A stretch of DNA of 64,000 nt, taken from assembly GCA_963814995.1 (NCBI GenBank), contig CAWFFF010000001.1, forward strand, positions 21,354 to 85,353, read 5' to 3'. A program made the translations under genes and the position numbers. Source of the DNA: an uncultured Actinomycetes bacterium. GTDB lineage: Bacteria > Actinomycetota > Acidimicrobiia > IMCC26256 > PALSA-610. Below, one piece after another: positions 5,724-23,041 of the stretch. Below the pieces are notes generated by a model. It was not told the origin of the DNA and made no database searches. It saw nothing but the letters and a program-made list of their open reading frames with translations. Position 1 is the first letter of the stretch. Each line of letters begins with the position of its first letter.

Positions 5724-5735
5724 GGAAATGGGGTT

Positions 5736-6323: not shown

Positions 6324-6332
6324 CGGAACGCG

Positions 6333-6980: not shown

Positions 6981-7066
6981 GGCGCGTGATCCTCTGAGAC
7001 GAAAAGGTGAACGGGACAGTCTCGCGCAAGTGGGACAACCGGGGGGAATCTCCGCCGGGGGCGGGC

Positions 7067-7708: not shown

Positions 7709-8676
7709 TACATGTTGTCGCCGCCGAAGAGCTCGCTCACGGAGCCGTCTTCGAACACGGCGTCGATCGCCTCGGCCAGAAGGGGTGCGATCGAGAGCAC
7801 GCGCAGCGTGTCGAAGCGCTTGTCGTCGGGGATCGGCACCGTGTTGGTGACGACCACCTCGCGGATCGGCCCGTTCTTCAGCCGGTCGACGGCCGGGCCC
7901 GAAAGCAGACCGTGCGTCGCCGCGATGTAGACCTCGATCGCGCCGCGCTCGATGAGCAGGCTCGCGGCGCTGACCACCGTCCCCGCGGTGTCGATCATGT
8001 CGTCGACGATGATGCACGTGCGCCCGTCGATGTCGCCGACGACCTCGGTGGCGACCGCGACGTTGTGCGTGCCCTTGGGCCGGCGCTTGTCGATGAACGC
8101 GATGTCGGCGTTCAGCCGGTCGGCGAAGCGGCGGGCGAGCTTGCCGCCGCCGGCGTCGGGGGCGACGATCACCGCGTCGCGGGCGACGTTCTGCTTCAGG
8201 TACTCGGCGATGACGGGCACCGCGGTGAGGTGGTCGACGGGGAAGTCGAAGAATCCCTGGATCTGGCCGGTGTGCAGGTCGACGGTGACGACCCGGTCGG
8301 CGCCCGCCGCGGTCAGCAGGTCGGCGACGAGCCGAGCGGTGATCGGCTCGCGCCCTTCGGCCTTGCGGTCCTGGCACGCGTATCCGTAGAAGGGGCAGAC
8401 CGCGGTGATCCGCTTCGCCGAGGCGCGCTTGGCCGCGTCGATCATGATCAGCTGCTCCATGAGCAGGTCGTTGATCGAGCCGCCGTGGGTCTGGAACACG
8501 AAGACGTCGGCGCTGCGGATGTTCTCGCCGTACCGGCAATAGATCTCGCCGTTCGCGAACGTCGACAGCACGCATTCGCCGAGCGGCGTCTTCAGGTGTT
8601 CGGCCACCTCGTTCGACAACGCCATGTGCCCGCGCCCGGCCACGAGGATGAGTCGCTTCTTGGTGAGAACCTCCAT
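7708..8676 (-). CDS. prs: Ribose-phosphate pyrophosphokinase
   Basis: FANGEIY, ASAKRITAVCPFYGYACQDRK, DLHTGQIQGFF, IIVDDMIDTAGT. Confidence 0.97.
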   Translation of the reverse strand: MEVLTKKRLILVAGRGHMALSNEVAEHLKTPLGECVLSTFANGEIYCRYGENIRSADVFVFQTHGGSINDLLMEQLIMIDAAKRASAKRITAVCPFYGYACQDRKAEGREPITARLVADLLTAAGADRVVTVDLHTGQIQGFFDFPVDHLTAVPVIAEYLKQNVARDAVIVAPDAGGGKLARRFADRLNADIAFIDKRRPKGTHNVAVATEVVGDIDGRTCIIVDDMIDTAGTVVSAASLLIERGAIEVYIAATHGLLSGPAVDRLKNGPIREVVVTNTVPIPDDKRFDTLRVLSIAPLLAEAIDAVFEDGSVSELFGGDNM

Positions 8677-8682
8677 CAGGCG

Positions 8683-10071
8683 TCATCCTCGCCGCGTCGG
8701 CCGTGTGTCGCGCGCCGGAACCCCTCGTACGTGGCGTCCCGGACCGACATCGTGCGTGACGACCGACCCCGCGCCCGTCTCCGCGTCGGCGCCGAGCTCG
8801 ACCGGCGCGACGAGCGACGTGTGGACTCCGGTGTGCGTCCCGTCACCGATCTTCGTGCGGTGCTTGTGCACGCCGTCGTAGTTCGCAGTGATCGTGCTCG
8901 CACCGAGGTTCACGCCCGCTCCGATCTCGGCGTCACCGATGTACGACAGGTGCGGGACCTTGGTTCCTTCGCCGATCTCGGAGTTCTTGACCTCGACGTA
9001 GGTGCCCACTTTCACTCCCGCGGCGAGACGCGTCCCCGGCCGCACGTATGCGAACGGGCCGACCTCGCAGCCGTCGCCGATCTCGCACTCGCGCGCCACC
9101 GTGTTCGACATGCGCACGCCCTCGCCGACCACGACGTCGGTCAGCCGGCAGTCAGGCCCGACGGTCGAGCCCGCGCCGACGACGGTGCGGCCCTCGAGGA
9201 TCGTGCCGGGGAGGAGGCGCACGTCGGCTTCGAGCTCGACCGCGGCATCGATGTAGGTGCGGCCGGGATCGACCATCGTGACCCCGGCGCGCATCCAGAC
9301 CCGGTTGATCCGCCCGCGCAGCTCCTCCTCGGCCTGGGCGAGCTCGGCCCGGTCGTTGACCATGATCGCCTCGCCCGGGTCGTCGGCCTCGAGCGCGACG
9401 ACGTTGTGCCCCGCGCTGCGCAGCACCGCGATCGCGTCGGTGAGGTAGTACTCGCCTTGCGCGTTCTCGGGGCTCAGGCGGCGGAGGGCCGGCGCGAGCA
9501 GGCCCCGACGGAAGCAGTAGATCGACGTGTTGATCTCGTGGATCTCGCGCTCCTCGTCGGTCGCGTCGGCATGCTCGACGACGCTCGCCACCCGACCGTC
9601 CTTGCCTCGCACGACGCGGCCCAGGCCCGCGGGGTCGGGAACCGTCGCGGTGAGGATCGCCGCCGCCGCGTCCTGCACCCGGTGCTCGGTCGCGAGCCGG
9701 GCGATCGTCTCGGCCCGCACGAGGGGCGCGTCGCTCGGCAGCACGAGGATGTCGTCCTCGGCATCGAGATCGTCGAAGACCGTGAGCGCCACGCTCACCG
9801 CGTCGCCCGTGCCGCGCTGCACGCGCTGCTCGACGAATTCCACCGGGACCTCGGTGACGAGTTGGTCCTGCAACGTCTTCGTCACACGCTCGGCCGCGTG
9901 GCCGACCACGACGACGATCCGCTCGAGCGGCAGCTCCGCGAGCGCGTCGATCACGTGCAGCACCATCGGGCGCCCGCAGAGCGGATGCAGCACCTTGGGG
10001 GTGCCGGACCGCATGCGCGTTCCTTCCCCGGCGGCGAGGACAACTGCACTCAGGGGCCGGTATTGCCTCAT
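8683..10071 (-). CDS. glmU: Bifunctional UDP-N-acetylglucosamine pyrophosphorylase/glucosamine-1-phosphate acetyltransferase
   Basis: VVLAAGEGTRMRSGTPKVLH, NAQGEYYLTD, hexapeptide region, VPHLSYIGDA, ITANYDG. Confidence 0.96.
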   Translation of the reverse strand: MRQYRPLSAVVLAAGEGTRMRSGTPKVLHPLCGRPMVLHVIDALAELPLERIVVVVGHAAERVTKTLQDQLVTEVPVEFVEQRVQRGTGDAVSVALTVFDDLDAEDDILVLPSDAPLVRAETIARLATEHRVQDAAAAILTATVPDPAGLGRVVRGKDGRVASVVEHADATDEEREIHEINTSIYCFRRGLLAPALRRLSPENAQGEYYLTDAIAVLRSAGHNVVALEADDPGEAIMVNDRAELAQAEEELRGRINRVWMRAGVTMVDPGRTYIDAAVELEADVRLLPGTILEGRTVVGAGSTVGPDCRLTDVVVGEGVRMSNTVARECEIGDGCEVGPFAYVRPGTRLAAGVKVGTYVEVKNSEIGEGTKVPHLSYIGDAEIGAGVNLGASTITANYDGVHKHRTKIGDGTHTGVHTSLVAPVELGADAETGAGSVVTHDVGPGRHVRGVPARDTRPTRRG

Positions 10072-10091
10072 CCGCGCTCCTACTCTCCTCG

Positions 10092-10165
10092 TGGCTCGGG
10101 GGGAAGGTTTCGAACCTTCGCTAAGGGCTTCAAAGGCCCCTGTGCTGCCGTTACACCACCCCCGA
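10092..10165 (-). tRNA. tRNA-Gln (anticodon TTG)
   Basis: Cloverleaf: acceptor TCGGGGG/CCCCCGA, anticodon arm GGGGC-CT TTG AA-GCCCT, T-loop GGTTCGAAACC, encoded CCA; usual position upstream of glmU. Confidence 0.95.
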
Positions 10166-10230
10166 ATCACCACCAATCTACCGGCCTCTTCCGGGCGATC
10201 AGGCGGGTTCTGATACCGTCACGCCTCGTC

Positions 10231-10332
10231 ATGGGCTCACTGATCAAGAAGCGCCGCAAGCGCATGCGCAAGAAGAAGCACAAGAAGCTGCTGAAGAAGA
10301 CCCGCTGGCAGCGTCGTCAGCAGGGCAAGTAG
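10231..10332 (+). CDS. 30S ribosomal protein bS22 (AURKAIP1/COX24-domain family)
   Basis: MGSLIKKRRKRMRKKKHKKLLKKTRWQRRQQGK matches the actinobacterial bS22 pattern. Confidence 0.92.
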   Translation: MGSLIKKRRKRMRKKKHKKLLKKTRWQRRQQGK

Positions 10333-10335
10333 GCA

Positions 10336-10365
10336 GCGGCCGCCCCATCGGGGCGGCCGTTTCGC
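10336..10365 (+). terminator. Intrinsic terminator after bS22, possibly bidirectional
   Basis: Stem CGGCCGCCCC-ATC-GGGGCGGCCG followed by TTTCG. Confidence 0.7.
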
Positions 10366-10387
10366 GTTCGGGCCCGGCCCGGCGCGC

Positions 10388-11161
10388 TCACGACCGGACC
10401 TGGACGCCGACCCCGATCGTCGACGCCAGCCAGACGGACCCCGCCACCGCGGCCGCGACGCGGTCGCGGGCCGCCGCCGCGTCGGCCCGATCGTCGAACA
10501 GCACCGCGTAGGACGATCCACTCCCCGCGAGGATCGCAGTCGCTCCGGCCGCCACCTCGACCTCGCGCTTGAACGCCGCCAACCTCGGCTCGACGTGCTC
10601 GGCCGCCGGCTCGAGATCGTTGACCTCGGCGCGCGGTCCTCCGAGCTCGTCCCAGGCCCGGTACACCGCCGCGGTCGAGCACCCGAACCGCGGTGTCGCC
10701 ACGACGATTGCGAAGTCGGGCACCTCTCCGGGGCGAAGTTGGTCGCCGATGCCTCGGACGTGCGCGAACCCGCCGCTCATGCAGAACGGCACGTCGGCGC
10801 CCAGCCGCGTGGCCGCGGCGACTTCGCCGTCGAGCGCGACGAGCACCGCGGCCGCGTCCGCGGAGCCCCCACCGAGACCCGCACCCGACGGAATGCCTTT
10901 GTGCAGTGTGATCTCGACGGGTGCGCCGCACGCGTCGGCTGCGCGCCACGCGAGGTTCGTCGCGTCGGCCGGGACCCCGGCCGCGAACGGGCCCGTCACC
11001 GTCAACGACGTGCGCGACGCGGGCCGGAGCACGAGCGAGTCGCACGGAGAGTCGATCGACACCATCGTCGCGTCGAGCTCGTGGTAGCCGTCGGTGCGCG
11101 TCCCGGTGACGTGTAGTGACAACGTGAGCTTCGCGAACGCGGCGACCGTGAGCTCACGCAT
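10388..11161 (-). CDS. ispE: 4-diphosphocytidyl-2-C-methyl-D-erythritol kinase
   Basis: AFAKLTLSLHV...DGYHEL, KGIPSGAGLGGGSADAA, LGADVPFC, GSGSS. Confidence 0.93.
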   Translation of the reverse strand: MRELTVAAFAKLTLSLHVTGTRTDGYHELDATMVSIDSPCDSLVLRPASRTSLTVTGPFAAGVPADATNLAWRAADACGAPVEITLHKGIPSGAGLGGGSADAAAVLVALDGEVAAATRLGADVPFCMSGGFAHVRGIGDQLRPGEVPDFAIVVATPRFGCSTAAVYRAWDELGGPRAEVNDLEPAAEHVEPRLAAFKREVEVAAGATAILAGSGSSYAVLFDDRADAAAARDRVAAAVAGSVWLASTIGVGVQVRS

Positions 11162-11950
11162 TCGCCAACCTTGCCCAGTCGCGCAACGACAGTGTCTCCG
11201 CGCGCGCCCCGGATCGACATGGGCCCGCTCGAACTGCTCCGCGTCGACACGGCCCGCGAGCGTGTTGCGCAGGGTCTTGCGGCGGGTCGCGAAGCCGGCG
11301 CGGACGAGATCGAACATCCGGGCGGCGTCGACCGTGACCGGCGGCGTCGCGTGTCGCACCAGGCGCACGAGTGCGCTCTCGACGTTGGGCTTGGGTTCGA
11401 AGACGTTCGGCGAGACCGTGCCCACCACCTTCGCGTCGGCGTAGTACGCGACTTTGACCGACACCGCGCCGTACGCATCGTCGCCGGCGCCGGCCGCGAA
11501 GCGATCGCCGACCTCGCGCTGCACCATCACCAGCATGCGTTCGATCATGGGCGCCTGCTCGAGCGCGTTCACCACGACGGTCGCGGCGACGTTGTACGGC
11601 AGGTTCGCCACCATGACCCAGGGCTCCGACCCGAGCCGGGCGCGCCAGTCGACCTTCAACGCGTCGTCGTGCACGACCTCGACGTCGCGGCCCGCGACGA
11701 CCTCCTCGAGGATCGGCAGGAGGTGACGATCGATCTCGATCGCGCACACGTGGACGCCTTCGTCGGCCAGCGAGACCGTCAACGAACCCACACCGGGCCC
11801 GACTTCGACGACGCGCTCTCCCGGCTGCAGCTCCGCGAGCCGCACGATCCGGCGGGCGGTGTTCTCGTCTACGAGGAAGTTCTGGCCGAGCGCCTTCGAC
11901 GGACGGACCCCGTGGCGCGAGAGCAGAGCGCGGACCTCGCTCGGCGTCAC
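11154..11950 (-). CDS. rsmA: 16S rRNA m6,6A dimethyltransferase KsgA; apparent frameshift near 11205 makes it look fused to ispE
   Basis: LGQNFL, VEVGPGVGSLT, ANLPYNV, MVQREV, RRKTLRN; the RAETLSL C-terminus is in another frame. Confidence 0.93.
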
Positions 11951-12720
11951 CGGTCGACGCCGAAGACGCGCGCCGCGTTCGGCACGCGTCAGCGCGGCGA
12001 TCTCCTCGGGCGCGACGCCCGCGCCCGCGCCAGCGCGGCGCCGACCGCGACGACGAGCGCGGGCTCGTTCGGCTTGCCCCGGTGCGGCTCGGGAGTGAGG
12101 AACGGCGAGTCGGTCTCGACGAGGATGCGATCGTCGGGCGTGATCCGGGCCGCGTCACGGAGCGCGTCGGCGTTCTTGAACGAGACGATGCCGCTGAACG
12201 AGAGGTGGCAGCCGCGTTCCAGCGCGGCGCGCGCCTCGTCGGGACCGCCGGTGAAGCAGTGGAAGACCGTTCGCTCGGGTACGCCCTCGTCGTCGAGCAC
12301 CCGGAACGTGTCGTCCCACACGTCGCGCGAATGGATCACGAGCGGCTTGCCGGTGTGCTTCGCCAGGCGGATCTGGAAACGGAACGCGATCTCCTGCTCG
12401 TCGCGGGGCGAGTGCTCGTAGAACAGGTCGAAGCCGCACTCGCCGATCGCGAGGCACGCATCCGACACCGCGAGCGGCTCGAGCATGCTCCATTCGACGG
12501 CGAGCTTCGACGCGTCGTGCGGATGCAGACCGACCGCGGCGTAGACGTCGTCGTGCCGGTCGGCGAGCACGAGCGCGGCCTGCGACGTCTCGAGGTCGGT
12601 GCCGACGCACACCATCCACGCCACGCCCACGGCTCGCGCCCGGACAATGGCGTCGTCGCCGCCGTCCAACTGCAGGTGGCAGTGGGAGTCGACCCAGCGC
12701 ACCGCCTCGGGCGCGCTCAC
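11947..12720 (-). CDS. tatD: TatD family DNase; apparent frameshifts near the C-terminus
   Basis: DSHCHL, GLHPHDA, AIGECGFD, VIHSRD, FHCFTG, LVETDSPFL. Confidence 0.93.
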
Positions 12721-14232
12721 GGCTCTTTCCGGGGAAAGAGCGGCGCGCCCTTCTCGAGCGGCGCGCCCGCGGGCAGCAAGCCCCAGGAAGCCGCGTCGGG
12801 CAACCGCTGGTCCTCGGGCCGCCCGCTCAGCCCCAGCCGTCGCCACAACTCGGCCGCGGCGTTCGGGATCACCGGTGACGCGAGCAGCGCGACGATCCGC
12901 AACGACTCGAGGCAGTCGCCGAGCACCGCGCGCGACCGCGGCCGCGTCTCCTTGCTTGTTGAGCGCCCACGGCTTTTCGTCCTCGATGTACGCGTTCGTG
13001 GCGCGGATCAGGTCCCAGACCGCGCCGAATCCGCCCGCGAAGTCGAGGCGCGTGAATGCATCCGCCATCGCCACGAACGTGGTGCCGGCCGTGGCTCGCA
13101 GCGGACCGTCGGCCCGCGCGTCGGGAACCACGCCACCGCAGTAGTTCATCGCCATGTTCAGCACCCGGTTCGCGAGGTTGCCGAAGTTGTTGGCGAGATC
13201 GGAGTTGTACCGCTGCACCATCTGCTCGTACGAGAAGTCGCCGTCGGGGCCGAACCGCTGGTCGGCCATGAAGTGGTAGCGGAAGCCATCGACACCGAAG
13301 TCGGCGACGAGGTCGGCCGGCGCGATCTGGTTCAGCCGGGTCTTGCTCATCTTCTCGCCGCCGACGAGCAGCCAGCCGTGCGCGAACACGCAGCGCGGCG
13401 CTTCGAGACCCGCGGCCATCAGCATCGCGGGCCAGTACACCGCGTGGAAACGCAGGATGTCCTTGCCGACGAGGTGGTAGTCGACCGGCCACCACTTGGC
13501 GAAACGCGCGTCGTCGCTGGCGTACCCGACGGCCGTGCAGTAGTTGAAGAGCGCGTCGGCCCACACGTACGCGACGTGCGCGGGATCCCACGGCAGGGGC
13601 ACGCCCCAGTCGATCGACGTCCGGCTCATCGAGAAGTCATGGAGCCCGCCGCGGATGAAGCCGAGCACCTCGTTCATCCGCGCCTCCGGTTGCACGGCGT
13701 CGGGATGCTCGGCGTAGTGCGCGAGCAACCGGTCGGTGTAGCGCGACAGCTTGAAGAAGTAGTTCTGCTCGACGACGTGCTCGACCGGACGCAGGTGGAT
13801 CGGGCAGTTGCCGTCGACGAGCTCGTCCTCGGAGTAGTACGCCTCACACGAGACGCAGTAGAGGCCCTCGTACGTGCCGAGCTCGATGTCGCCCGCGTCG
13901 TAGATCTTCTGCAGGAACGTCTGCACCGCGGTGTAGTGGCGCGGTTCGGTGGTGCGGATGAAGTCGTCGTAGGCGATGTCGAGCCCGTCCCATGTCTCGC
14001 GGAAGTGCCCGGCCGTCTCCGCGACCAATTCCCTCGGGGTGACCCCGCGCGCTTCGGCCACGCGCTGCACCTTCAACCCGTGCTCGTCGGTGCCTGTCAG
14101 GTAGAAGACCTCGTCGCCGAACAGGCGCCGCCAACGCGTCAGGACGTCGCCCGCGACCGTCGTGTACGCGTGCCCGATGTGGGGGACGTCGTTGACGTAA
14201 TAGATGGGAGTCGTGACGTAGAAGCGGGGCAT
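12717..14232 (-). CDS. metG: Methionyl-tRNA synthetase; apparent frameshift near 12930 makes it look fused to tatD
   Basis: YVTTPIYYVNDVPHIGHAY, TGTDEHG, GKDILRFH, KMSKT; the LFPRKEP C-terminus is in another frame. Confidence 0.96.
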
Positions 14233-14270
14233 GGGGACCCCTATTGTGCCCGACCCCGTCGCGGCGCCGG

Positions 14271-14600
14271 TCAGCCTTTCAGCTCGACCACGTCGCCGGG
14301 CCGTAGCTTCCATCGTTCGAAGCTGCCGGAGCGCGCCTCGATGACGAACGCGGAACGCCAGACCACGCGCGAGATCCGGCGTGGCCCGAGGTCGCTCAGG
14401 TGCAGCACGGTTCCCGAGCCGTCGCAGAACGCGACGTCGATCGGGAAGCGCATCCCGAACGTGTGCACCTGGCGGCACGGGCGCAACACCAACGCGCCCT
14501 CGAAGTCGTCGCGGCCCATGAGGCCACGTGTGCGCAGGCGCCGGGAGTGCGCGACCTCGGCGACCGCCAACACGTCGTCGTCGCGAACGAGCCAGGTCAT
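14271..14600 (-). CDS. DUF192 (UPF0127) family protein
   Basis: RTRGLMGR, VHTFGMRFPIDVAF, VIEAR. Confidence 0.85.
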   Translation of the reverse strand: MTWLVRDDDVLAVAEVAHSRRLRTRGLMGRDDFEGALVLRPCRQVHTFGMRFPIDVAFCDGSGTVLHLSDLGPRRISRVVWRSAFVIEARSGSFERWKLRPGDVVELKG

Positions 14601-14609
14601 GACCGCTTC

Positions 14610-15635
14610 CTACACGTTGAACCGGATCTCGAGGACGTCACCGTCTCGGACCTCGTAGTCCTTGCCTTCGACCCGCAGCTTCTTCAGCTCCCTCGCCTTG
14701 GCCCACGTGCCGACCACGAGGAGCTCCTTCCAGTCGATGACCTCGGCCCGGATGAAGCCGCGCTGGAGGTCGCTGTGGATGACGCCCGCGCACTCGGGCG
14801 CCTTGGCCCCGGCCCGGAACGTCCACGCCCGCGACTCGTCCTCGCCCGTCGTGAAGAACGTCCGCCGGCCGAGCATCTGGTACGCCGCCTGCGCGACGGA
14901 GTCGAGCGCGGACGGCCCGAGCCCGTACGACTCGCGCATCTCGTCGCGGTCCTCGGGCGCGCACGCCGCGATCTCGGCCTCGATGTCGATCGGCACCGCG
15001 AGGACGTCCTCGCCGGCCGGGAGCGCGGTGTCGGTCGCGAGCGCCTCGCCGGTGTTGGCCACCACGAGCAAGGGCTTCGTGGTGAGGAGGAAGACGGGGG
15101 CGAGATGCGCGAGCTCGTCGGCCGAGAACGACCCGCGCCGGATCGGCGTGCCGTCGGAGAGCAGCGCGTGCGCCCGTTCGAGCACCTCGACCTCGGCGAT
15201 GATCTCCTTGTCGCCGCTCTTGGCCGCCCGGCGCTGGCGCGTGATGCGCTGCTCGACGCTCGCGAGGTCGGCGAGCACGAGCTCGAGCTCGAGCGCGGCG
15301 AGGTCGCCCTCGGGATCCGGGGCAACACCGCCGTCGGAGAAGGCGCGGAGCACGATGAGGATCGCGTCGCAGTTGCGGAGGCTGCCGAGGAACTTGGCGC
15401 CGAGACCTTCGCCCGGTTTCGAGCCCGGCGGGAGGGCGAGGTGGACCAGCTCGAAGCCGGCCGCGACCGTCTTCTTCGAATGCGCGGCCTCGGTGAGGCG
15501 CAGCAGCCGTTCGTCGGGCAGGCTCGCCACACCGACCGCGGCCTCGTACTCGCTCGGCACGGGCAGGCCGGTCAAGGCGCTGAACAAGCGGTTCGCGCCC
15601 GCGCCGGTGAAACCCACGAGACCGAGGTTCTCCAT
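14610..15635 (-). CDS. ychF: YchF/OLA1-family ribosome-binding protein with degenerate G motifs
   Basis: GEGLGAKFL, LELELVLADL, TFFTTGEDESRAW, AGVIHSDLQRGFIRAEVI, EGKDYEVRDGDV (TGS domain). Confidence 0.9.
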   Translation of the reverse strand: MENLGLVGFTGAGANRLFSALTGLPVPSEYEAAVGVASLPDERLLRLTEAAHSKKTVAAGFELVHLALPPGSKPGEGLGAKFLGSLRNCDAILIVLRAFSDGGVAPDPEGDLAALELELVLADLASVEQRITRQRRAAKSGDKEIIAEVEVLERAHALLSDGTPIRRGSFSADELAHLAPVFLLTTKPLLVVANTGEALATDTALPAGEDVLAVPIDIEAEIAACAPEDRDEMRESYGLGPSALDSVAQAAYQMLGRRTFFTTGEDESRAWTFRAGAKAPECAGVIHSDLQRGFIRAEVIDWKELLVVGTWAKARELKKLRVEGKDYEVRDGDVLEIRFNV

Positions 15636-15643
15636 CGGGGCGC

Positions 15644-15664
15644 AGGCTACCGATCGGGTAGCCT
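15644..15664. promoter_or_regulatory. Back-to-back TAGCCT -10-like boxes for divergent ychF and bL37, forming an 8-bp inverted repeat
   Basis: AGGCTACC-GATCG-GGTAGCCT; TAGCCT lies 8 nt before the ychF ATG (minus strand) and 10 nt before the bL37-type ATG (plus strand). Confidence 0.55.
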
Positions 15665-15696
15665 CCAACCCCCTATGAGCAAGAAGACGAAGAAGC
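15657..15696 (+). repeat. attL: 40-bp direct repeat containing the bL37 -10 box and first 7 codons
   Basis: GGTAGCCTCCAACCCCCTATGAGCAAGAAGACGAAGAAGC, identical to 20987-21026. Confidence 0.95.
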
Positions 15697-15849
15697 CTCC
15701 GGGCCGCTTCTTCGCACCTTAGCCCTGGTCGCGGCCGGTGCGCTGGTAGCTGCCTCGTCGCGCGTCACCCGCGCTTGGTCGTCTTCGCCGCCCGCACGGT
15801 TTGCTGGTGCCCGTCGGGTATGAGCGGGCCCGATGGAGAACTTGGCCAT

Positions 15850-17286
15850 TCAAGGTGGGTCAACGAGGTGCCGGAAGGGCATCGACGCCGAGACGGCCAT
15901 TCGCACAGGCCTCGGACGTACCAATTCGACGGACGCACGCACCACCCCAGCGGCCGAATACCGCCCGGGCTCGACCGACTCGCCGTACTCGTGGGTGTTC
16001 GGTGGCGGGAACTCCCTCTCGAAGTAGCCGACGGCGCGCGCCGTCCGCTCCAATAGGGCTTCTACGTCACCAACCGTCTCGCATCCCGCGTGGAACAGCA
16101 ATTCTGTTAGTTGTGGCAGCTCATCGGGCCTGCAAGGCCTGCGGTCTTCGAACTTCTTCGCGAGGTACGGACCAAGCGTGTCAACGTCAAGAAAGGCATC
16201 CGCGCTGACCAAGGCACGCGCTTTTTCTTCAGCGTCCTGCACCTCGCGGAACAGCGTTTCAAACTGCAAATCTGCCGTGTAGAGCGAACCGCTCAGCGCG
16301 TGAAAGTCGCGCCGAAGTCTGCCAGGTATCCGACGTTCGGTGTTGTAGTCAAGAACGTGCGAGACGTTCGCCCACGCGTCCATGAGAATCGTACGCACCT
16401 GAATTTCGAGCGAGCGACCCCGGAGAGCCTCTGGCGTTTCGTCATCCCATGGAACCCGCACGTTGTGATGCACAGACATATAACCGAATGAGTCAACGGC
16501 AGAGCCCGCGACCTTATTCTCGACTGACAATACATCAAAGGTCTCACGAATGACCTCCGCGACGAGCTCAAGGTCTGCGAGGACGACACACACAACCCTC
16601 AGTCCTACGACGTCGCCAAGATTCTCGAAAGCGTAGAACTCCTCGTGTCGCCCAATCTTTTCGCGTATCGACTTGTCCGACTTAATACGTCCCGTAACCG
16701 AGTGAACATCGATGTTGGCGGTGCTTAGAGCCGATTCAAGCACATGTCTCGCATGCGACAGTACCGCTTCCAGGTTTTCCAGTTCCTCGCCTCGCCGAGC
16801 AGTTGCGTCATCCTGACACGCTCGCAGTGCGTCCGCCTTTGCTTGCTCGTAGACGGCGAAGTCAGCGGTCGACGGCAAAATGTCGTTTAGCCATTGTTCT
16901 ACTGCGGCCATTAGAAAGTGCTGCGTCATCGGGCGGTCGACGGCAACGAACCGTACGACCTCGCCTTCAGCTCCCGCGAAGTACGGCGCGCCTTCTGGGC
17001 CGAAGGTTAGAGAGTTGCGGACGAAGCCCTCTTGCGGAATCGGGTCGTCCTGCTTCCGAATTGCGGAGAATCTCCACGGCCCCTCAGGCCCATAGAAAGG
17101 GCTCATGCTGTCGAGCAACGCCACGGGCTTCTCCCGGAGAAGCCTCCTAACCTCCAGGAACACGGCATTGAGGTCTACCAACCCGATTGGTTGCATGTTC
17201 TCGTCGCGGTCGGGTTGGCCCGGGTTCACGACCAGCGTTATCGGGAATGCGTCGATAGGAAGTCTCACCGCGTCCGGCGACGTCAT
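15850..17286 (-). CDS. RelA/SpoT synthetase-domain protein (small alarmone synthetase-like) with extra N- and C-terminal domains
   Basis: GRIKSDKSIREK, DVVGLRVVC, FGYMSVH, LEIQVRTILMDAWANVSHVLDY; no HD hydrolase, TGS or ACT domain recognised. Confidence 0.88.
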   Translation of the reverse strand: MTSPDAVRLPIDAFPITLVVNPGQPDRDENMQPIGLVDLNAVFLEVRRLLREKPVALLDSMSPFYGPEGPWRFSAIRKQDDPIPQEGFVRNSLTFGPEGAPYFAGAEGEVVRFVAVDRPMTQHFLMAAVEQWLNDILPSTADFAVYEQAKADALRACQDDATARRGEELENLEAVLSHARHVLESALSTANIDVHSVTGRIKSDKSIREKIGRHEEFYAFENLGDVVGLRVVCVVLADLELVAEVIRETFDVLSVENKVAGSAVDSFGYMSVHHNVRVPWDDETPEALRGRSLEIQVRTILMDAWANVSHVLDYNTERRIPGRLRRDFHALSGSLYTADLQFETLFREVQDAEEKARALVSADAFLDVDTLGPYLAKKFEDRRPCRPDELPQLTELLFHAGCETVGDVEALLERTARAVGYFEREFPPPNTHEYGESVEPGRYSAAGVVRASVELVRPRPVRMAVSASMPFRHLVDPP

Positions 17287-17413
17287 CGGAGGTCAGCGTA
17301 TGCCGATGCGCGTGCTCAGCTCCAGCCGCCAGCCTCACTCCATGCCACAGGCTTTGGTGTAGCGAAGCGTCGCACGCATGAAGCGGTGCGTCAGGTGGCA
17401 CGAAGACCCGGTC

Positions 17414-17683
17414 CTAAGGCCATCCACCTTCCAGCGAGCAAGCGGCGACCTGTTCTCGTCCGGTCTCGGTGATTCTCCGAACGGCGTTCTTCTTGCCCCA
17501 CCGCGAGATACGCGCCTCTCCGGTTTCTTCGATGAAGCCGCGCTTCCGTAGCCGCGCGGGTCGGCTCGCGATACCGCTGACCGCTTGCCGGGGATAGATG
17601 CGCGCTACCAACTCATCGAACGTCAGACCGTCGGCGCCTGCGTCCGCGTAGGCCTGCAGAATCTCGTGTTCGGCGGGACTCAT
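17414..17683 (-). CDS. Small winged-helix DNA-binding protein, phage-like
   Basis: ILQAYADAGADGLTFDEL...SRPARLRKRGFIEETGEAR...RITETG; AGGAG RBS 9 nt upstream. Confidence 0.7.
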   Translation of the reverse strand: MSPAEHEILQAYADAGADGLTFDELVARIYPRQAVSGIASRPARLRKRGFIEETGEARISRWGKKNAVRRITETGREQVAACSLEGGWP

Positions 17684-17700
17684 TCGTGAATACTCCTGCC

Positions 17701-17852
17701 TGACCGAATGATTAGAGACTTCGGGGAGGCCGTAGGCACCGGAAGGCACGAAAAGACGCCTACGGACGCTCCCCGTGCCCGCCGAGCGCAGCTCGCGTCA
17801 GTCACGGTCGGAAGGGTGACCGAATGCGGACTGAGCGAAAGCGCGGCTGGGC
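17701..17852 (-). ncRNA. Putative structured RNA or cis-regulatory leader between the capsid-like and wHTH genes
   Basis: Two long hairpins (CGGGGAG/CTCCCCG plus CCGTAGGC/GCCTACGG; TCAGTC/GACTGA plus CGGTC/GACCG) and a 10-bp direct repeat TGACCGAATG at 17701 and 17817; strand inferred from flanking genes. Confidence 0.4.
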
Positions 17853-17860
17853 GAAAACAG

Positions 17861-18661
17861 CTACGCCGCGACGCGCGCGCAGAGCCCTTCGGGCAACGCG
17901 TTGGCGACGAAATCGCCACGCCAGACGAGCGCCTTTTCGAGACTCGACGGAATCGGCACTGCGCCCGGAGGTGTCGCATTCGCGACGGGAACGGTCGCGG
18001 TGATGCCCTTATTCAGTTCGTACGTCTCGATGTAGCGGGACGCGGCAACGACCATCGTGTCGTCATCCAAGCCGGGGCTGTAGACGACCTGGAGTCCTGC
18101 CGGACCTTCGGTCGCGAGCCGCGGAAAGACCGGCAGGTCGTCGGTGCCGGTCATGCCCGCGAGCGAATCCCAACGGTTACCGGAGACGAGCAGCACGTCA
18201 GCCATTCGCTTGCAGTTGGTACGGACGACCGTGATTCCGGCGACGATTGCGGAGAGCACTACACCGGGGCTGTCGAAATCAGTACATGGCGTTCCGTTGG
18301 TCGCGGCGGCGACGACCGCGTCGCACGCAGTCTCTTCGGTGACGACCGCGTACGAGTCCGCGAGCTCTTCGATGACCATGTCGAACCACGCATCGTGCGA
18401 CCAGTCGATGTCCTGCTCTGTCAGGTTGAGAGTGCGCGCGTATCGCCCCTTGTCGAACGTGTCAGCGGTCGTCGTCACTTGCGTCGAGGACGCTTGCGCT
18501 TTCTCGACGTGCAGCGCGGCGAGCGTCGCTGACGTGATGCGCGGCCGGTCGAACGTCTTGCCGAGGGTAGGCATCGGACCAGGACCGCGACCGCTACGCG
18601 AGATACTCGTTACCGGACGCCATTCGCGGTCCGCCTCGAAGTCGACCCGTCCCAATCGCAC
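17861..18661 (-). CDS. Phage major capsid-like protein (HK97 fold), short or N-terminally truncated; start uncertain
   Basis: RPV...MPTLGKTFDRPRIT...EK...YARTLNLTEQDIDWS...FDMVIEELADSYA...E, LAGMTGTDDLPVFP, GLQVVYSPGL resemble actinophage HK97-type capsid proteins. Confidence 0.72.
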   Translation of the reverse strand: MRLGRVDFEADREWRPVTSISRSGRGPGPMPTLGKTFDRPRITSATLAALHVEKAQASSTQVTTTADTFDKGRYARTLNLTEQDIDWSHDAWFDMVIEELADSYAVVTEETACDAVVAAATNGTPCTDFDSPGVVLSAIVAGITVVRTNCKRMADVLLVSGNRWDSLAGMTGTDDLPVFPRLATEGPAGLQVVYSPGLDDDTMVVAASRYIETYELNKGITATVPVANATPPGAVPIPSSLEKALVWRGDFVANALPEGLCARVAA

Positions 18662-18758
18662 AACACGCGGTAATCGTCGTCGGTCGCCGCGCCAAAGCGA
18701 TGATGCTGCGCGGTTGCCGGACTTCCCTTGCCGTCAGGACCCAGCTGTCCAAGTCGGT

Positions 18759-19922
18759 TTAGCTGCCAGGCAGTGCGCCCGCCGCGTATGCCTCAGTGAA
18801 CCGCTGCACGCAATCGAGGCCACCAGCAAAATCTTCGTTTAGCGGATTCAGACCAGCGGCTCGTAGTCGCGGCGCCAGCCCTGGGTCTCGGTTAACGACG
18901 TACGCCTGCATATCCTCTGACCGCCCTCTTGTTGCTTCAAGCAACATCGAAGAAACCAATAGGTCGTGTTCCGGCATTGAATAGCCGACTACAAATATCC
19001 TGCTGGCATTCCTGAGGACTTTCAGTGCACTTCGCCATAGAAGCTGAATCTTCGGATTATCAAAGAAGGCATTCTTGGACACGGTAGGCGGCACGATGAT
19101 GGGAACCTTGCCGGGTGCTCGGTGTTGCGGAAGCCATTCATGTTCGGCCTCGGAATCGTTCCAGCCCACCGGAAGGCCAATCTCGACCATGGAGTCCGCC
19201 GAGCGTGACGCGTCGTCCCAGTACCAGTGAATCGAGCCATGGAGCTTGTAAAGCCGGAACGTTCTAACAGGCATATAGCGTCTATCCCCTGCACCTTCCG
19301 ATTCCGCCCAGTGGCTCACGATAGATGGGCCGACCAATCTGTAGTTTGGCCATCCCCGACTTGGCACTTCAACCCAAAGGTCACTACTCGTGTAGGAGAG
19401 TGGAAGATGACAGCCGGCGAGGCATGCCTCTATAAGAGTGTCGTAGTTGAAGGTAATAACTTCTGCTTTGCGGTCGTGCCAGGCTCGGATAAGCCGGGGT
19501 AACCACTCGTTGGAATCGGGATGCACATGGATGCACGCATCGACAGTCGACTGGCATATTTGCGAGGCGACGGCGCTACTGACCTCGGCGAAGAGCGTGT
19601 GAGAACGGTCGTTCTCGCTCTGCTCCAAATAGGGCTGAGTCTGAGCCAGTCGACTCAACCAGACCTCAAAGTTGCCTCCCGGAGGCTTCCCACCGACAAG
19701 CCGTGGTTCGTCGCACGAGATTCCGTCGCAGGTGTCACTGTGTATTCGCCGCGAAGCCTTGTGTGCGCCTGCCAACTGGTCGATTGCACGCTGACCAAGA
19801 ACGTCGGTTGATGGCATGTAGTCGGGCGCTATCGCCATCGAGAAGCCAGCACCGAGAATGAAGACATCCTGCACGCCCGGAAGGCTAACTCGATGGTTTC
19901 GCGCATCGTCGCCCACCATCAT
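18759..19922 (-). CDS. SIR2-like (SIR2_2/AbiH-like) domain protein
   Basis: VFILGAGFS, VITFNYDTLIE, LYKLHGSIHW, IIVPPT, IFVVGYSMPEHD, VVNRD; ATGA-coupled to the integrase stop. Confidence 0.85.
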   Translation of the reverse strand: MMVGDDARNHRVSLPGVQDVFILGAGFSMAIAPDYMPSTDVLGQRAIDQLAGAHKASRRIHSDTCDGISCDEPRLVGGKPPGGNFEVWLSRLAQTQPYLEQSENDRSHTLFAEVSSAVASQICQSTVDACIHVHPDSNEWLPRLIRAWHDRKAEVITFNYDTLIEACLAGCHLPLSYTSSDLWVEVPSRGWPNYRLVGPSIVSHWAESEGAGDRRYMPVRTFRLYKLHGSIHWYWDDASRSADSMVEIGLPVGWNDSEAEHEWLPQHRAPGKVPIIVPPTVSKNAFFDNPKIQLLWRSALKVLRNASRIFVVGYSMPEHDLLVSSMLLEATRGRSEDMQAYVVNRDPGLAPRLRAAGLNPLNEDFAGGLDCVQRFTEAYAAGALPGS

Positions 19923-20896
19923 CCGGTGAAGGCGGTGCCCCTTGCTCTGTCGACCGGAGAACCCATCCGTTTGTAGGCCGCGATGGCACGTGCCGTTTTC
20001 TCGGCACGTCCGTAACGCATCGGCATCTCAGTCGTGCGCCACCCGCCCAGGCTCATTAGCACTTCGAGTTCCACGCCGTTCGATTTCAGGTCGTGCGCCC
20101 ACGTATGACGGAATAGGTGCGCCCGAGCGCCCGTAACCCCCGCCTCTTTCGCGGCAGAGGCGATGACGCCTGCAACCGTCTTGTACGAGGCAGCACCACT
20201 GCGCCCTACGAATAGCTGCGGTAGGAATGCGAAGCCGTGCGACTCGCGCGCGATGGCGTAGCGGTTCAGGAGCCGTGCCGTTTGGAATCCGAACATCACC
20301 GTACGTTCGTAGCCACCCTTCGCTATGGCTGCGTGTACGAACGCCTGACGCGCGCCGATGTCGACATGCTCCGCCAGGAGCCCGGCACACTCCGAGGCCC
20401 GTAGGCCCGTGTCCTGGAGGAGTGCGAGCATCGCAGGGTCTCGCGTCGCCTCGAACGCGGAGCGCCCGCTCCGACGTGAGCCGGCCCCCTTCGCCAAGCC
20501 CCGCAAGGCGTCAGCGTCGATGGCTGCGGGAGGTGCGTATTCGACCACCGGCAGGAGAGGCACGTAGAGCATCGGCGACTCGGAGATGACGCCCTCGTCT
20601 ACGAGCCAGTTGTAGAAGGTGCTTACCGTCAGGTTGTAGGTATTGATGGTCGTCGCCTTCAGCCCCCGTTTCACGAGCGAGTCTCGCCACGCGAGCAGTT
20701 GACCGTCCGTGACGAATGCGGCGTCCACGTCTCCAAAGTGCCGTGCGAGCCGTTGGAGCTGTTCCCGCTGGTTGACGATGGTTCGAGGTCGGGCGCCTCT
20801 CGCGCCGAGCTCGTTCTCCCAAAATGGGACCCATTCGAGGAACGTGCGCCCCGCTACCGGGACGGGTCGGATGCGTCGTTTCGGTTGCCCTGCCAT
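19919..20896 (-). CDS. Tyrosine recombinase/integrase
   Basis: SAM-like N-terminal domain; catalytic set TGLRASE (R), KGGYER (K), HLFRH (H,R), LGGW (W), MRY (Y). Confidence 0.93.
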   Translation of the reverse strand: MAGQPKRRIRPVPVAGRTFLEWVPFWENELGARGARPRTIVNQREQLQRLARHFGDVDAAFVTDGQLLAWRDSLVKRGLKATTINTYNLTVSTFYNWLVDEGVISESPMLYVPLLPVVEYAPPAAIDADALRGLAKGAGSRRSGRSAFEATRDPAMLALLQDTGLRASECAGLLAEHVDIGARQAFVHAAIAKGGYERTVMFGFQTARLLNRYAIARESHGFAFLPQLFVGRSGAASYKTVAGVIASAAKEAGVTGARAHLFRHTWAHDLKSNGVELEVLMSLGGWRTTEMPMRYGRAEKTARAIAAYKRMGSPVDRARGTAFTG

Positions 20897-20986
20897 GCCT
20901 TTCGGTGCCTCCCGCTTGCTCGTCTTTCTGGCGACCTGGCGGAACGCCAGGAGCCAGCTACGAAGCGGCCCGGAGGGCCGAAATCA

Positions 20987-21026
20987 GGTAGCCTCCAACC
21001 CCCTATGAGCAAGAAGACGAAGAAGC
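20987..21026 (+). repeat. attR: 40-bp direct repeat that restores the intact bL37 5' end
   Basis: Identical to 15657-15696. Confidence 0.95.
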
Positions 21027-21088
21027 GCCGTCTCAAGGCCCGCCGCAACAAGGCGAACCACGGCAAGCGGCCCCGCGCCGGGCGCTGA
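21005..21088 (+). CDS. 50S ribosomal protein bL37 (actinobacterial)
   Basis: MSKKTKKRRLKARRNKANHGKRPRAGR contains the bL37 signature KANHGKRP. Confidence 0.9.
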   Translation: MSKKTKKRRLKARRNKANHGKRPRAGR

Positions 21089-21106
21089 ACCGCCGGTCTC
21101 CCGCTC

Positions 21107-21595
21107 CTAGCGCGCGCTCTCGCCGACCCAGCGGGCGCCCTTTTCGAGCACCGGCCGGGGTACGTCGTGCAGCACGCCGCCGAACAGCTCGGCGATCGTC
21201 GTGCCGGCCAGCTCGGCCCGCCACACCTCGTCGGCCCGGGTGAACGCCCGGTGGATGCCACAGGCCTTCGTGTACTCGCGTGCGGGCATCGCCATCGGGC
21301 CGCGGCGGCGGATCTCGGTGCAGCGGAAGGCGGGCTCGTCGCCGTCGATCGCCTCCACGACGTCGAGCACCGTGATCTCCGCGGCCGGGCGCGCCAGTCG
21401 GTAGCCGCCCCGCGCCCCCTTCACCGTGCGCAGCACGCCCGCGCCCGCGAGCGCCTGCAGGTGCTTGGCCAGGTACGCGGCGGGCACGCCGTGGTACTCG
21501 GCGAGCTTCGCGGCCGGGAGCGCGGCGTCGTCGGGCAGGCTCGCGAGCAGCACGCAGACGTGCACACCCCACTCGACCCCGTCGGACAGGCGCAT
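21107..21595 (-). CDS. Rrf2-family transcriptional regulator, RsrR-type [2Fe-2S]
   Basis: MRLSDGVEWGVH (E8, H12), GARGGYRLAR, FRCTEIR (C92), KACGIH (C112) match the Glu/His/Cys/Cys ligand pattern of RsrR. Confidence 0.88.
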   Translation of the reverse strand: MRLSDGVEWGVHVCVLLASLPDDAALPAAKLAEYHGVPAAYLAKHLQALAGAGVLRTVKGARGGYRLARPAAEITVLDVVEAIDGDEPAFRCTEIRRRGPMAMPAREYTKACGIHRAFTRADEVWRAELAGTTIAELFGGVLHDVPRPVLEKGARWVGESAR

Positions 21596-21599
21596 AACC

Positions 21600-21616
21600 C
21601 GGATACTACCTATCCG
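21600..21616. promoter_or_regulatory. Putative Rrf2 operator (6-5-6 inverted repeat)
   Basis: CGGATA-CTACC-TATCCG just upstream of the Rrf2 start, in the divergent intergenic region. Confidence 0.55.
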
Positions 21617-21675
21617 ATAAAAGGCCGGTATCTCCGACGAACCACCCGGCCGGCCTCACTACCATGCTCGGCGTC

Positions 21676-22164
21676 ATGGCCACGATCGACGAAGCCGAGC
21701 TCCTGCCCGACGCCGACCAGCACAAGCTGCTGATCGCGACGTTGGAGCGCGTCAACCGCACGAGCAACGCCGCCCGGGCCGCCGCGCTGCAGAGCAACAC
21801 CTTCGAGGGCGCACCGCTGCGCGACATCGTGAAGGCCGAGGTCGAGAAGGCCAAGCTGCCCGATCTCCTCGTCCGTCCGGTCGCCGACCGGGTCGAGGAG
21901 TCGCTCAAGCGCCGGGCGGGGAAACAGCACAAGTTCTCGCAGTACCAGGGCCTGGCCCTCCCGGCGTCCGCGTTCAAATGGGGCGGCTCCGACCGGGTGA
22001 CGATGCTGACCGCGTCGGGCCGGCGCACGATCTCGGTGCGCGTCGACCGCAGCCGGGGCGACCTCCGGCCGCCGCTCGCGGGCCGGCCCGCGGCGCTCGT
22101 GTACCGCAACGGAGAGTTCGAGCTGTGGGCCACCGACGTCGAGCGCAAGTCCGACGACGACTGA
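21676..22164 (+). CDS. TnpB-derived protein: N-terminal WED/REC region only, no RuvC (alternative start 21664)
   Basis: ELLPDADQHKLLIATLERVNRTSN, KWGGSDRVTMLTASGRRTI, ALVYRNGEFELWATDV are collinear with the IS605-type TnpB N-terminal half; ends before the RuvC-I GVDLG motif. Confidence 0.68.
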   Translation: MATIDEAELLPDADQHKLLIATLERVNRTSNAARAAALQSNTFEGAPLRDIVKAEVEKAKLPDLLVRPVADRVEESLKRRAGKQHKFSQYQGLALPASAFKWGGSDRVTMLTASGRRTISVRVDRSRGDLRPPLAGRPAALVYRNGEFELWATDVERKSDDD

Positions 22165-22171
22165 AGCCGAG

Positions 22172-23041
22172 CTAACCCTCGCCGGTCGCCTCGTCGCCGG
22201 GGCGGCGGACGTGCATCGGCAGGTTGCCGGCCCGCTCGACGAGGAGTGACTGCACACCCCGGCCGATCACGCCGTGCTCGTCGTGCAGCCGGGTGTCGGC
22301 CATGCCAACGCCGTGCGGCTGAGCCCAACCTCCGGACTCGAGACAGACCCACTCGCCCACGGGGTGCCGGTGGACGTGGACGGTCAGCTCCGGGTTGATC
22401 GCGTTCGCGTTCGTCAAGCGCACGGGACTCGCCACCCCGCTACCGAAGTCGGCGGCCGCGGCGACCCGCGCGACCGGTGAGATCGGCTCCCCCGCGATCA
22501 CGGGGCACTTCAACCGGAACCACGCGACACCGGGCCCGGGTTCGAGCCAGTTGCCCGCGACGAGGTGGACGTCGTGCACGTTCCAGAACCCGATCGCACC
22601 CTCGCCGAACGGGAACTTCTGGCGCTCGACCGAGTCGGGATGCGGCGGAGCGTCGACGTCGGGATGTACCGACCCGCTCGTGTCGACGTTTTCGGAGCGG
22701 ATGCGCAGCGCGGTCGCGCGCGCGACCTCGTGCTCGCCCTTCGCGAAGAGCATCGCCTCGATCCACTGCACCTTGCGGCCGGGCCGGATCGTGCGCACGC
22801 GCAACTCGAGCGGTTCCAGCGGTACCGGCCGCATCAGCTCGACGGTCAGCCGCGCGAGGAACGCGGCCGGACCCGGGTCGTAGGTCTCGCACACGGTCGC
22901 GAACAGCGCGCTGGGCGCGCCGCCGTGCAGCGCGTTCGGGCTCCACGGACCGCGGGCCAACGCGGTGGGCACGTAGCGCGCACCGTCGGGTTCGAACAGC
23001 GCGCCGTAGCGCGCGATGGGATCGCCGGTCGTGTCGGGCAC
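22172..23041 (-). CDS. Thioesterase family protein (TesB-like double hot-dog)
   Basis: ARGPWSPNALHGGAPSAL, ARLTVELMRPVP, AAADFGSG, INPELTVHVHRHPVGEW. Confidence 0.85.
   Translation of the reverse strand: MPDTTGDPIARYGALFEPDGARYVPTALARGPWSPNALHGGAPSALFATVCETYDPGPAAFLARLTVELMRPVPLEPLELRVRTIRPGRKVQWIEAMLFAKGEHEVARATALRIRSENVDTSGSVHPDVDAPPHPDSVERQKFPFGEGAIGFWNVHDVHLVAGNWLEPGPGVAWFRLKCPVIAGEPISPVARVAAAADFGSGVASPVRLTNANAINPELTVHVHRHPVGEWVCLESGGWAQPHGVGMADTRLHDEHGVIGRGVQSLLVERAGNLPMHVRRPGDEATGEG

Follow-up and report, generated by a model that had tools for sequence, protein, structure and literature searches.

A 5.3-kb integrative island at the 5' end of the probable bL37 gene of an uncultured actinobacterium carries a truncated HK97-fold capsid gene and defence-type cargo

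Gene content and boundaries of the island

The DNA analysed here is a stretch of 64,000 nucleotides (the window) from an uncultured Actinomycetes bacterium (GTDB lineage Acidimicrobiia; IMCC26256; PALSA-610; GenBank assembly GCA_963814995.1, contig CAWFFF010000001.1, positions 21,354 to 85,353), and it holds an island of 5.3 kb inserted at the 5' end of a probable bL37 ribosomal protein gene. The island carries five genes, all on the minus strand, which encode, in the direction of transcription, a tyrosine integrase (int), a SIR2-like protein, an HK97 capsid-like protein, a small protein of 111 amino acids (aa) and a RelA/SpoT-domain protein (Table 1). An earlier note, made from the sequence of the window, had described a 5,330-bp unit with five co-oriented genes between perfect 40-bp direct repeats, and the repeat search, the open reading frames (ORFs) and the domain matches gave the same picture. 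The profile matches also agreed with its domain calls for the int, SIR2-like, HK97 capsid and RelA/SpoT genes.

The direct repeats are 44 nt long and 98% identical, with a single mismatch (15653-15696 and 20983-21026). They are spaced by 5,330 bp and their last 40 nt are identical. The chance recurrence of a perfect 40-mer within 9 kb is negligible by simple arithmetic (4^40). The repeat is composed of an 18-nt leader (GGTAGCCTCCAACCCCCT) upstream of an ATG and of the initial 22 nt of a 27-aa ORF (MSKKTKKRRLKARRNKANHGKRPRAGR). This ORF is intact at the right end of the island, whereas at the left end its start is fused to element DNA. The GC content of the island is 61.6%, compared to 70.3% and 70.7% in the flanks, and by this contrast the island is foreign.

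The int gene is preceded by a ribosome-binding site graded as strong (GGGAGG), and the R..HxxR..Y residues of tyrosine recombinases were visible by eye in its translation. The int stop codon overlaps the start of the SIR2-like gene by 4 nt (ATGA). All other intergenic gaps measure 97-153 nt and leave no room for more genes. Scans of the five proteins against Pfam, PADLOC, PHROGs and NCBIfam detected no primase/Rep, terminase, portal, tail or transfer protein, in line with the earlier note, which had recognised no primase/Rep, terminase, portal or tail genes.

The 27-aa ORF matched the NCBIfam family ribo_Myco_bL37 (NF047428) with 19.7 bits, the cut-off being 30 bits. In a genome-wide search with this family, it was the only match (17.3 bits, also below the cut-off). 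The target ORF is thus probably, but not certainly, bL37. The gene on the right flank encodes an Rrf2 regulator, according to a domain match.

Table 1. Features of the island and of its insertion site (coordinates of the window)
Feature	Position	Strand	Evidence or remark
ychF, left flank, probable ATG at 15635	14610..15635	-	YchF-GTPase_C, E 3e-33; 341-aa equivalent in G014
8+5+8 palindrome, AGGCTACC-GATCG-GGTAGCCT, ychF-bL37 intergenic region	15644..15664		right arm is the first 8 nt of the repeat
attL, left 40-bp repeat copy	15657..15696		TAGCCT box, 5' leader, first 22 nt of bL37
15-codon stub at attL, bL37 start fused to element DNA (MSKKTKKPPGRFFAP, then stop)	15675..15722	+	sequence read; ORF end 15722
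20-nt inverted repeat, left arm, just inside attL	15696..15715		90% complementary
RelA/SpoT-domain protein, 478 aa	15850..17286	-	PF04607, E 2.6e-19; PADLOC PDC-S33, E 2.8e-12
Small protein, 111 aa	17414..17749	-	phrog_18663, E 3e-8; phrog_1123; phrog_2440 'transcriptional regulator', E 0.0047
5'-truncated HK97-fold major capsid gene	17861..18661	-	PF25209 (Phage_capsid_4), E 1.3e-8; phrog_2263
Stand-alone SIR2-like protein, 387 aa	18759..19922	-	PF13289 (SIR2_2), 26.9 bits, cut-off 24.5
Tyrosine integrase (int), 325 aa, adjoins attR	19919..20896	-	PF00589, E 2.6e-23; SAM-like N domain; phrog_1, E 7.7e-34
20-nt inverted repeat, right arm, 10 nt inside attR	20957..20976		90% complementary
attR, right 40-bp repeat copy	20987..21026		runs on into the intact bL37 gene
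Intact probable bL37 gene, 27 aa, integration target	21005..21088	+	NCBIfam NF047428, E 7e-4, below cut-off

Occupancy of the site in related genomes

The genomes compared are metagenome assemblies, and the genome from which the window comes is 71.6% complete. Both flanks of the island were found in 17 genomes of the same genus. In 16 of these, the ychF and bL37 flanks abut or lie at most ~40 nt apart, which provides the empty site in relatives that the earlier note had proposed as a check. In the remaining genome, G014, the two flanks are separated by 8.4 kb. Three fragmented genomes of the genus (G015, G017 and G019) gave no flank match and are not counted among the 17. When the loci were read individually (L002-L012), ychF and bL37 were contiguous in 10 out of 11, and the intact 27-aa ORF was seen in 9 of these loci, 39 nt from the ychF start. 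The island therefore shows target-duplicating direct repeats, an uninterrupted site in relatives and a tyrosine recombinase gene at one end, as a tyrosine-recombinase island should. Together with its low GC content and a sibling element at the same site, the repeats and empty sites bear out the bounded integrative unit proposed in the earlier note.

The sibling element was found in G014 (locus L021, G014:C1:1238500-1250000, element 1423-9850), where perfect 44-bp repeats spaced by 8,384 bp delimit an insertion at the same ychF-bL37 site. Its integrase is 82-88% identical to that of the island. The nucleotide sequences of the two elements are similar in two regions only, the int/attR side (19941-21086, 79%) and attL with ~95 nt (15601-15790, 80%). 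The gene order in G014 is int, core genes, a capsid gene and cargo beside attL. The capsid ORF of 459 aa is full-length and matches phrog_2263 over positions 101-461 of 551 (E 2e-36), and the further cargo consists of nine ORFs without a significant Pfam or PHROG match.

Integrases at E <= 1e-60 were found in 4 of 264 genomes of the order, all four from the same genus and including the genome of the window. Besides G014, one is in G020 (60% identical; L025, G020:C8:50000-69999, 10404-16664), in a 6.2-kb element with 27-bp perfect repeats at another site, the cargo of which comprises ORFs without family matches and one helix-turn-helix protein. The other is in G008 (54% identical; L026, G008:C4:23000-42999, 9425-18506), in a 9-kb element with 92-bp perfect repeats that end 18 nt before a tRNA-Ser gene and with an ISL3 transposase gene inside. 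A scan of the contigs of all species-representative genomes with the integrase gave 19 loci, among which only that of G014 is close (82%). The other 18 integrases are at most 48% identical, and no capsid, SIR2, RelA or winged helix-turn-helix relative was found near them. Judged from these sequences, the elements make up a small family, defined by the tyrosine integrase and the att ends, that was seen in no other genus.

The earlier note had allowed that homologous elements might turn out to be full prophages of which the island is a deletion remnant. The related elements are not full prophages, but the closest of them, at 8.4 kb, exceeds the island in size and possesses a full-length capsid gene, so that the island looks like a derivative produced by deletion and replacement.

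A more distant capsid relative of 395 aa was found on a 10.4-kb contig of another genome (L034, G130:C64:1-10420), together with an AAA_25 primase/helicase-like protein, a head-tail connector, an ApeA HEPN defence gene and an integrase gene beside tRNA-Ala. With this gene content, the contig resembles a capsid-encoding satellite equipped with defence cargo. As a separate observation, pairs of tyrosine-recombinase-like frames (334 and 435 aa, ~0.4 kb apart) are present at four places on contigs C3, C5 and C7 of G000 (L015-L020), and at two or three of these places the scores are identical. A fifth 435-aa frame stands alone at C5:7984. These pairs look like a multi-copy mobile element.

Sequence features of the attachment site

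The start codons of ychF and bL37 are on opposite strands and 39 nt apart. This intergenic region contains a palindrome and a TAGCCT box, situated 10 nt before the bL37 ATG, conserved in all relatives of the genus that were read and retained at attR. A region so short, with a palindrome and a conserved box, implies divergent and probably leaderless transcription of ychF and bL37, and we infer that TAGCCT is the -10 element of a nearly leaderless bL37 mRNA.

The left end of the repeat lies within the 8+5+8 palindrome, the left arm of which is kept, like the TAGCCT box, in those empty sites of relatives of which the sequence was read. As part of attB, the palindrome may be a core-type site for the recombinase. 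The two arms of the 20-nt inverted repeat would flank the 40-bp core in the predicted excised circle, and the G014 element has a diverged inverted repeat around its core, with arms at the same positions. A limited literature search on integration at bL37 returned only unrelated papers. The 5' end of bL37, which the island rebuilds upon insertion, is probably an undescribed and thus possibly a new attachment site. Finally, an Rfam scan of positions 14000-23000 gave nothing beyond a chance miRNA-like match inside ychF.

The truncated capsid gene

Depending on whether translation starts at a GTG or at an ATG, the capsid ORF encodes 266 or 237 aa, and its homology to full-length relatives begins abruptly at position 18619. 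The protein matches the major head protein family phrog_2263 (E 1.8e-17) over profile positions 303-506 of 551. Among 1.8 billion representatives searched, 289 relatives were found at E <= 1e-3, most of them of ~400 aa, and the island protein aligns to their C-terminal ~240 residues. Its closest relative, P0002 (378 aa), is 81% identical without gaps, over residues 127-378 only. When the capsid relatives P0002, P0103 and P0106 were used as tblastn queries against the whole window, the N-terminal part was detected in no frame, and the first 126 residues of P0002 left no trace anywhere in the window. An assembly frameshift as the cause of the short gene was therefore rejected. The part that has been lost comprises the N-terminal (scaffold/delta-type) region and a conserved motif directly before the retained part (consensus LLRxVAETGTxDTxGxxPxxVxGDLVKFVDASRP), which we take, by comparison with HK97, to be the distal N-arm.

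The AlphaFold model of the island protein has a pLDDT of 91.3 and a pTM of 0.87, and its best matches among solved structures are actinobacteriophage capsids and mature HK97 gp5 (E ~2e-12, TMq 0.69). An encapsulin identity was rejected, as the Pfam and PHROG matches are phage capsids and encapsulin folds appear only from rank 18. In G497, a member of the family sits together with TerL and an S78 prohead protease, which identifies the family as genuine phage capsids. A metagenome scan with the capsid protein found one relative, 32% identical, on a 2.9-kb contig, and a scan of viral contigs with the capsid alignment found one 31% fragment.

The closest capsid relatives have a ribbon-helix-helix-like segment N-terminal to the HK97 domain, namely P0002 (residues 32-63), P0106 (9-42) and the G014 frame L021:2794-4173 on the minus strand (142-179). 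These matches are sub-threshold (RHH_1, E 0.16 and 0.17; NikA-like, E 0.034). Other relatives (P0105 and P0110) gave no such match, and their N-termini, inspected visually, were taken for a coiled-coil delta domain. A DNA-binding domain at the N-terminus would be an unusual feature in a capsid protein.

The SIR2-like, RelA/SpoT and 111-aa proteins

The SIR2-like protein matches PADLOC SIR2 models with E-values down to 6.8e-11. Its relatives number over 1,200, most of them hypothetical proteins of ~350 aa that stand alone, and the best non-self match is 51% identical. In a 23-sequence alignment, N159-Y160-D161 and K226-L227-H228-G229-S230 are invariant and G-x-G-F-S (24-28) nearly so. We take these to be the NAD-binding and catalytic motifs of SIR2_2 domains, with N159 and H228 as the catalytic residues, and the protein is likely to be an NADase. 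No SLOG, HerA, Argonaute or long sensor domain was detected in it or in the four neighbouring genes using Pfam and PADLOC.

The RelA/SpoT-domain protein consists of an N-terminal extension of ~155 residues, a SAS-like synthetase domain (~172-354) and a family-specific C-terminal domain (~360-478), predicted to be all-helical. Its relatives are of ~325 aa and align from residue ~158 to ~460, the best non-self match being 42% identical. The N-terminal extension has no relatives and a low-confidence model, although its GC pattern is coding-like, and an atlas search with residues 1-160 gave no usable match. The invariant residues include R200, K202, K210, D225, R230, Q296 and R298, and the best solved folds are SAS1 and SAS2 (TMt ~0.8). 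Based on these features, the protein is likely to be a nucleotide or tRNA pyrophosphokinase that is held in check by its own C-terminal domain. The PDC-S33 match is confined to the catalytic part (positions 47-182 of 349; six relatives likewise, 48-180), and no PADLOC v2 model, PDC-S33 included, is matched in full by the ~325-aa family.

Lone genes on the opposite strand of a phage are in the usual position of accessory 'moron' genes. Relatives of the RelA/SpoT protein were found as lone, oppositely oriented genes in the Mycobacterium abscessus prophage prophi68-1 (MW584157.1, gene 42; L036) and in an 8.1-kb Vibrio filamentous phage, an inovirus (PQ189320.1, 6571-7581; L035).

The 111-aa protein had been called a winged helix-turn-helix gene product in the earlier note. 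The ORF is present, and the label is tentative, as the protein matched PHROG families only, two of them of unknown function and a third annotated as 'transcriptional regulator' (E 0.0047). Its look-alikes in the atlas, which we treat as a lead only, are phage proteins of ~110 aa, and the G008 element encodes a 41-aa stretch that is 46% identical to it. It is possibly a winged-helix regulator or a recombination directionality factor.

Does the capsid gene belong with the effectors?

The earlier note had seen in the island a capsid-derived protein paired with two abortive-type effectors, and had pointed to CapRel, which is reported to be activated directly by a phage major capsid protein (PMC9712102). 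Like the fused toxSAS proteins of the CapRel type, the RelA/SpoT protein combines a synthetase and a following C-terminal domain in one polypeptide and is carried by a mobile element, as those are by mobile elements or prophages. Its catalytic domain, however, is nearest to SAS1/SAS2, its C-terminal domain is predicted to be all-helical, and it bears the additional ~155-aa extension. A phmmer search with it against solved structures did not find CapRel, and among the fold matches, obtained with the whole-protein model, the CapRel structures rank 36-37 with a root-mean-square deviation of 18-21 Å. In these comparisons, no likeness to CapRel, with its C-terminal zinc-finger-like antitoxin/sensor domain, was seen outside the catalytic domain.

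The pairing itself was not supported either. In a sample of 401 genomes of the class, including that of the window, 9 have a member of the SIR2 family and 4 a member of the capsid family, and the RelA core was found in that of the window only. No two of the three were found together in any genome except that of the window, and the capsid gene derives by 5' truncation from a gene for a phage major capsid protein of ~400 aa. The other part of the proposal, a defence islet, is plausible, and the cargo is of defence type at the level of domains.

The truncated capsid could nevertheless be part of a defence, as a dominant-negative subunit in the capsids of related infecting phages or as a resident ligand that tunes the RelA/SpoT or the SIR2-like protein by a logic like that of CapRel. 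It would then have been kept because it works with the effectors, either by poisoning procapsid assembly or by setting the trigger threshold of the RelA/SpoT protein, the SIR2-like protein or both. The position of the gene between two effector-type genes would suit this explanation, as would its intact ORF without extra derived changes and the activation of CapRel by a major capsid protein. Against it stand the all-helical C-terminal domain and the distant CapRel matches, the absence of the three families together from every other genome searched, and the context of the 81% identical capsid relative, in which no close SIR2 or RelA relative is found. We regard such a role for the capsid as quite improbable, and the idea that it was retained for joint action with the effectors as equally improbable. 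If true, a three-part immune module of a capsid decoy plus abortive effectors would have arisen from a wrecked capsid-encoding mini-element.

Proposed origin of the island

The reading which we favour, with a confidence little better than even, is that of a site-specific integrative islet that descends from a mini element with capsid and integrase genes and in which the core has been replaced by defence-type cargo. The integrase would recombine the chromosomal site with a copy of the bL37 5' end carried by the element, a reaction that would duplicate 40 bp and leave an intact bL37 gene at attR. The ancestor was probably a G014-like mini element of ~8 kb, with an integrase gene, a full-length HK97 capsid gene and several unknown genes. 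In the island, all that lay between int and the capsid gene would have been swapped for the SIR2-like gene, translationally coupled to int, and the same replacement would have removed the first 126 or more codons of the capsid gene. On the attL side, the element would have gained the RelA/SpoT gene and the gene for the small phage-type protein, presumed to bind DNA. Synteny with G014 suggests these steps, i.e. the loss of the int-capsid region and of the capsid 5' end upon entry of the SIR2-like gene, and acquisition next to attL. At present, the island is probably a small islet with a defence or accessory role, in which the SIR2-like and RelA/SpoT proteins would be abortive-type effectors upon phage infection. 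As it has no replication, packaging or transfer genes, its spread would need a helper phage or another element, or may have ceased.

Several points weigh against this reading. Only two elements occupy the bL37 site. The capsids of the island and of G014 are 37% identical, compared to 82-88% for the integrases, so that common descent of the capsid module is insecure and independent capture is possible. In addition, the int and capsid genes of G014 are frameshifted in an assembly of 51% completeness, and the G020 and G008 elements, with integrases 54-60% identical, have no capsid gene. The defence role is deduced from domains, and no curated defence model is matched over its full length by either cargo protein. 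The retained part of the capsid gene shows no sign of decay. Its 252 residues contain no stop and no indel, derived changes number 9 in the window copy and 8 in P0002 (13 and 14 with the five closest outgroups), and the model predicts a confident, nearly complete HK97 core. With an intact ORF, no excess of change and such a core, the gene may still be in use.

One alternative is a working minimal phage satellite. In this case, a helper phage would induce excision and then replicate and package the 5.3-kb circle, perhaps as concatemers, while the delta-less capsid protein would co-assemble with the helper capsid or redirect it, and the SIR2-like and RelA/SpoT proteins would protect the host from non-helper phages. 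The integrase, the repeats and the terminal inverted repeats are intact, as this requires, and the capsid ORF, without rate acceleration and with its confidently modelled core, is compatible with it. There are also reported precedents in PICMIs of 6 kb that can be packaged as concatemers (PMC10803314) and in capsid-encoding satellites of actinobacteria, i.e. EPIPs (PMC12822802) and Streptomyces satellites (PMC10690885). However, no primase/Rep, small terminase, cos/pac site or head-tail adaptor was recognised using Pfam, PADLOC, PHROGs and NCBIfam, and PICMIs are described as requiring alpA, int and a primase (PMC10803314). The capsid lacks its N-terminal domain and the conserved N-arm motif, and no ribosome-binding site is visible before either of its two candidate starts. 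Moreover, a tblastn search of 50,697 phage records with the capsid protein gave no match, and thus no candidate helper was found. We consider a functional satellite to be improbable.

The island might conversely be an inert remnant, fixed at its site, with the capsid gene as a young pseudogene and the other genes as hitch-hiking accessory genes, such as toxins that stabilise the element. This would account for int being the sole mobility gene, for the truncation of the capsid gene and for a cargo that differs wholly between the two sibling elements. A promoter consensus scan, which found 0 sites compared to 1.2 expected, points the same way, although the host may use other promoter forms. The state of the genes does not favour an inert remnant, since the 40-bp repeats have remained perfect, none of the five ORFs is disrupted, catalytic-type residues are conserved, and int has its strong GGGAGG and is coupled to the SIR2-like gene. 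Decay of the capsid gene is likewise unsupported by the relative-rate count. We judge this explanation unlikely, and retain that of a derivative of a capsid-plus-integrase mini element with a replaced core.

Comparison with known elements

Actinomycete integrative and conjugative elements (AICEs), of which pSAM2 is an example, are small elements of actinobacteria that encode a tyrosine integrase and have direct repeats where they sit at a conserved gene. The island resembles them in each of these respects, but it inserts into a protein-coding gene, at the 5' end, and not into a tRNA gene. Assignment to the AICEs was rejected, as neither Rep nor FtsK-like Tra was found among the five proteins with Pfam, PADLOC, PHROGs and NCBIfam.

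With the PICMI, cf-PICI, EPIP and MiniFlayer satellites, the island shares a small size, a site-specific integrase and anti-phage cargo, and some of these satellites also encode their own capsid. In contrast, PICMIs need alpA and a primase and insert beside fis (PMC10803314), and neither alpA nor primase was found in the island. EPIPs are 11 kb in size and possess a small terminase, adaptors, a scaffold and a serine integrase (PMC12822802), none of which was found here. The same database scans of the five proteins revealed no replication module of its own, and of the genes for packaging or capsid redirection (small terminase, Sid/Psu/Cpm-like proteins, adaptors) none was seen, the truncated capsid gene being all that is present. 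By its predicted gene content, the island thus does not show the defining features of the PICI, cf-PICI, P4, PLE and PICMI satellites, the EPIPs or the AICEs.

Among SIR2 defence effectors (Thoeris ThsA, DSR1/DSR2, SIR2-HerA and SIR2-APAZ/pAgo), the island protein has in common the SIR2_2 domain and the conserved Asn, Asp and His positions. Unlike Thoeris, DSR, SIR2-HerA and pAgo, it is a stand-alone protein of 387 aa, without the partner gene or domain that defines each of these systems. It stands for a SIR2-like family of ~350-390 aa, which, along with the RelA/SpoT family of ~325 aa with a helical C-terminal domain, provides two single-gene candidates.

The closest likeness is to the 'twilight-zone' mini HK97-fold elements of 5-11.6 kb, described as containing an HK97 capsid gene, a scaffold gene and an integrase gene but no portal, terminase or tail genes (Nat Commun 2026, PMC13669383). 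The island falls into the same size class (5,330 bp, below 11.6 kb), has an integrase and an HK97-fold capsid as its sole structural gene, lacks portal, terminase and tail genes and, like many genes in those elements, includes genes of unknown function. It differs in its truncated capsid, of which at least 126 N-terminal residues and the N-arm motif are missing, in having no scaffold or Rep, in its defence-type cargo and in a capsid of the phage-capsid and not the encapsulin family. The dominant group of mini HK97 elements comes from human-gut samples and has a scaffold, often RepA or a helicase, and encapsulin-like capsid domains (PMC13669383). The 8.4-kb element of G014, complete capsid gene included, closely fits the description of the mini elements. 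Two siblings that occupy a single site suggest that a mini capsid element can lose its contents and take up defence cargo in their place, and they link two topics, the recently described mini elements with integrase and HK97 capsid genes and the small defence islets.

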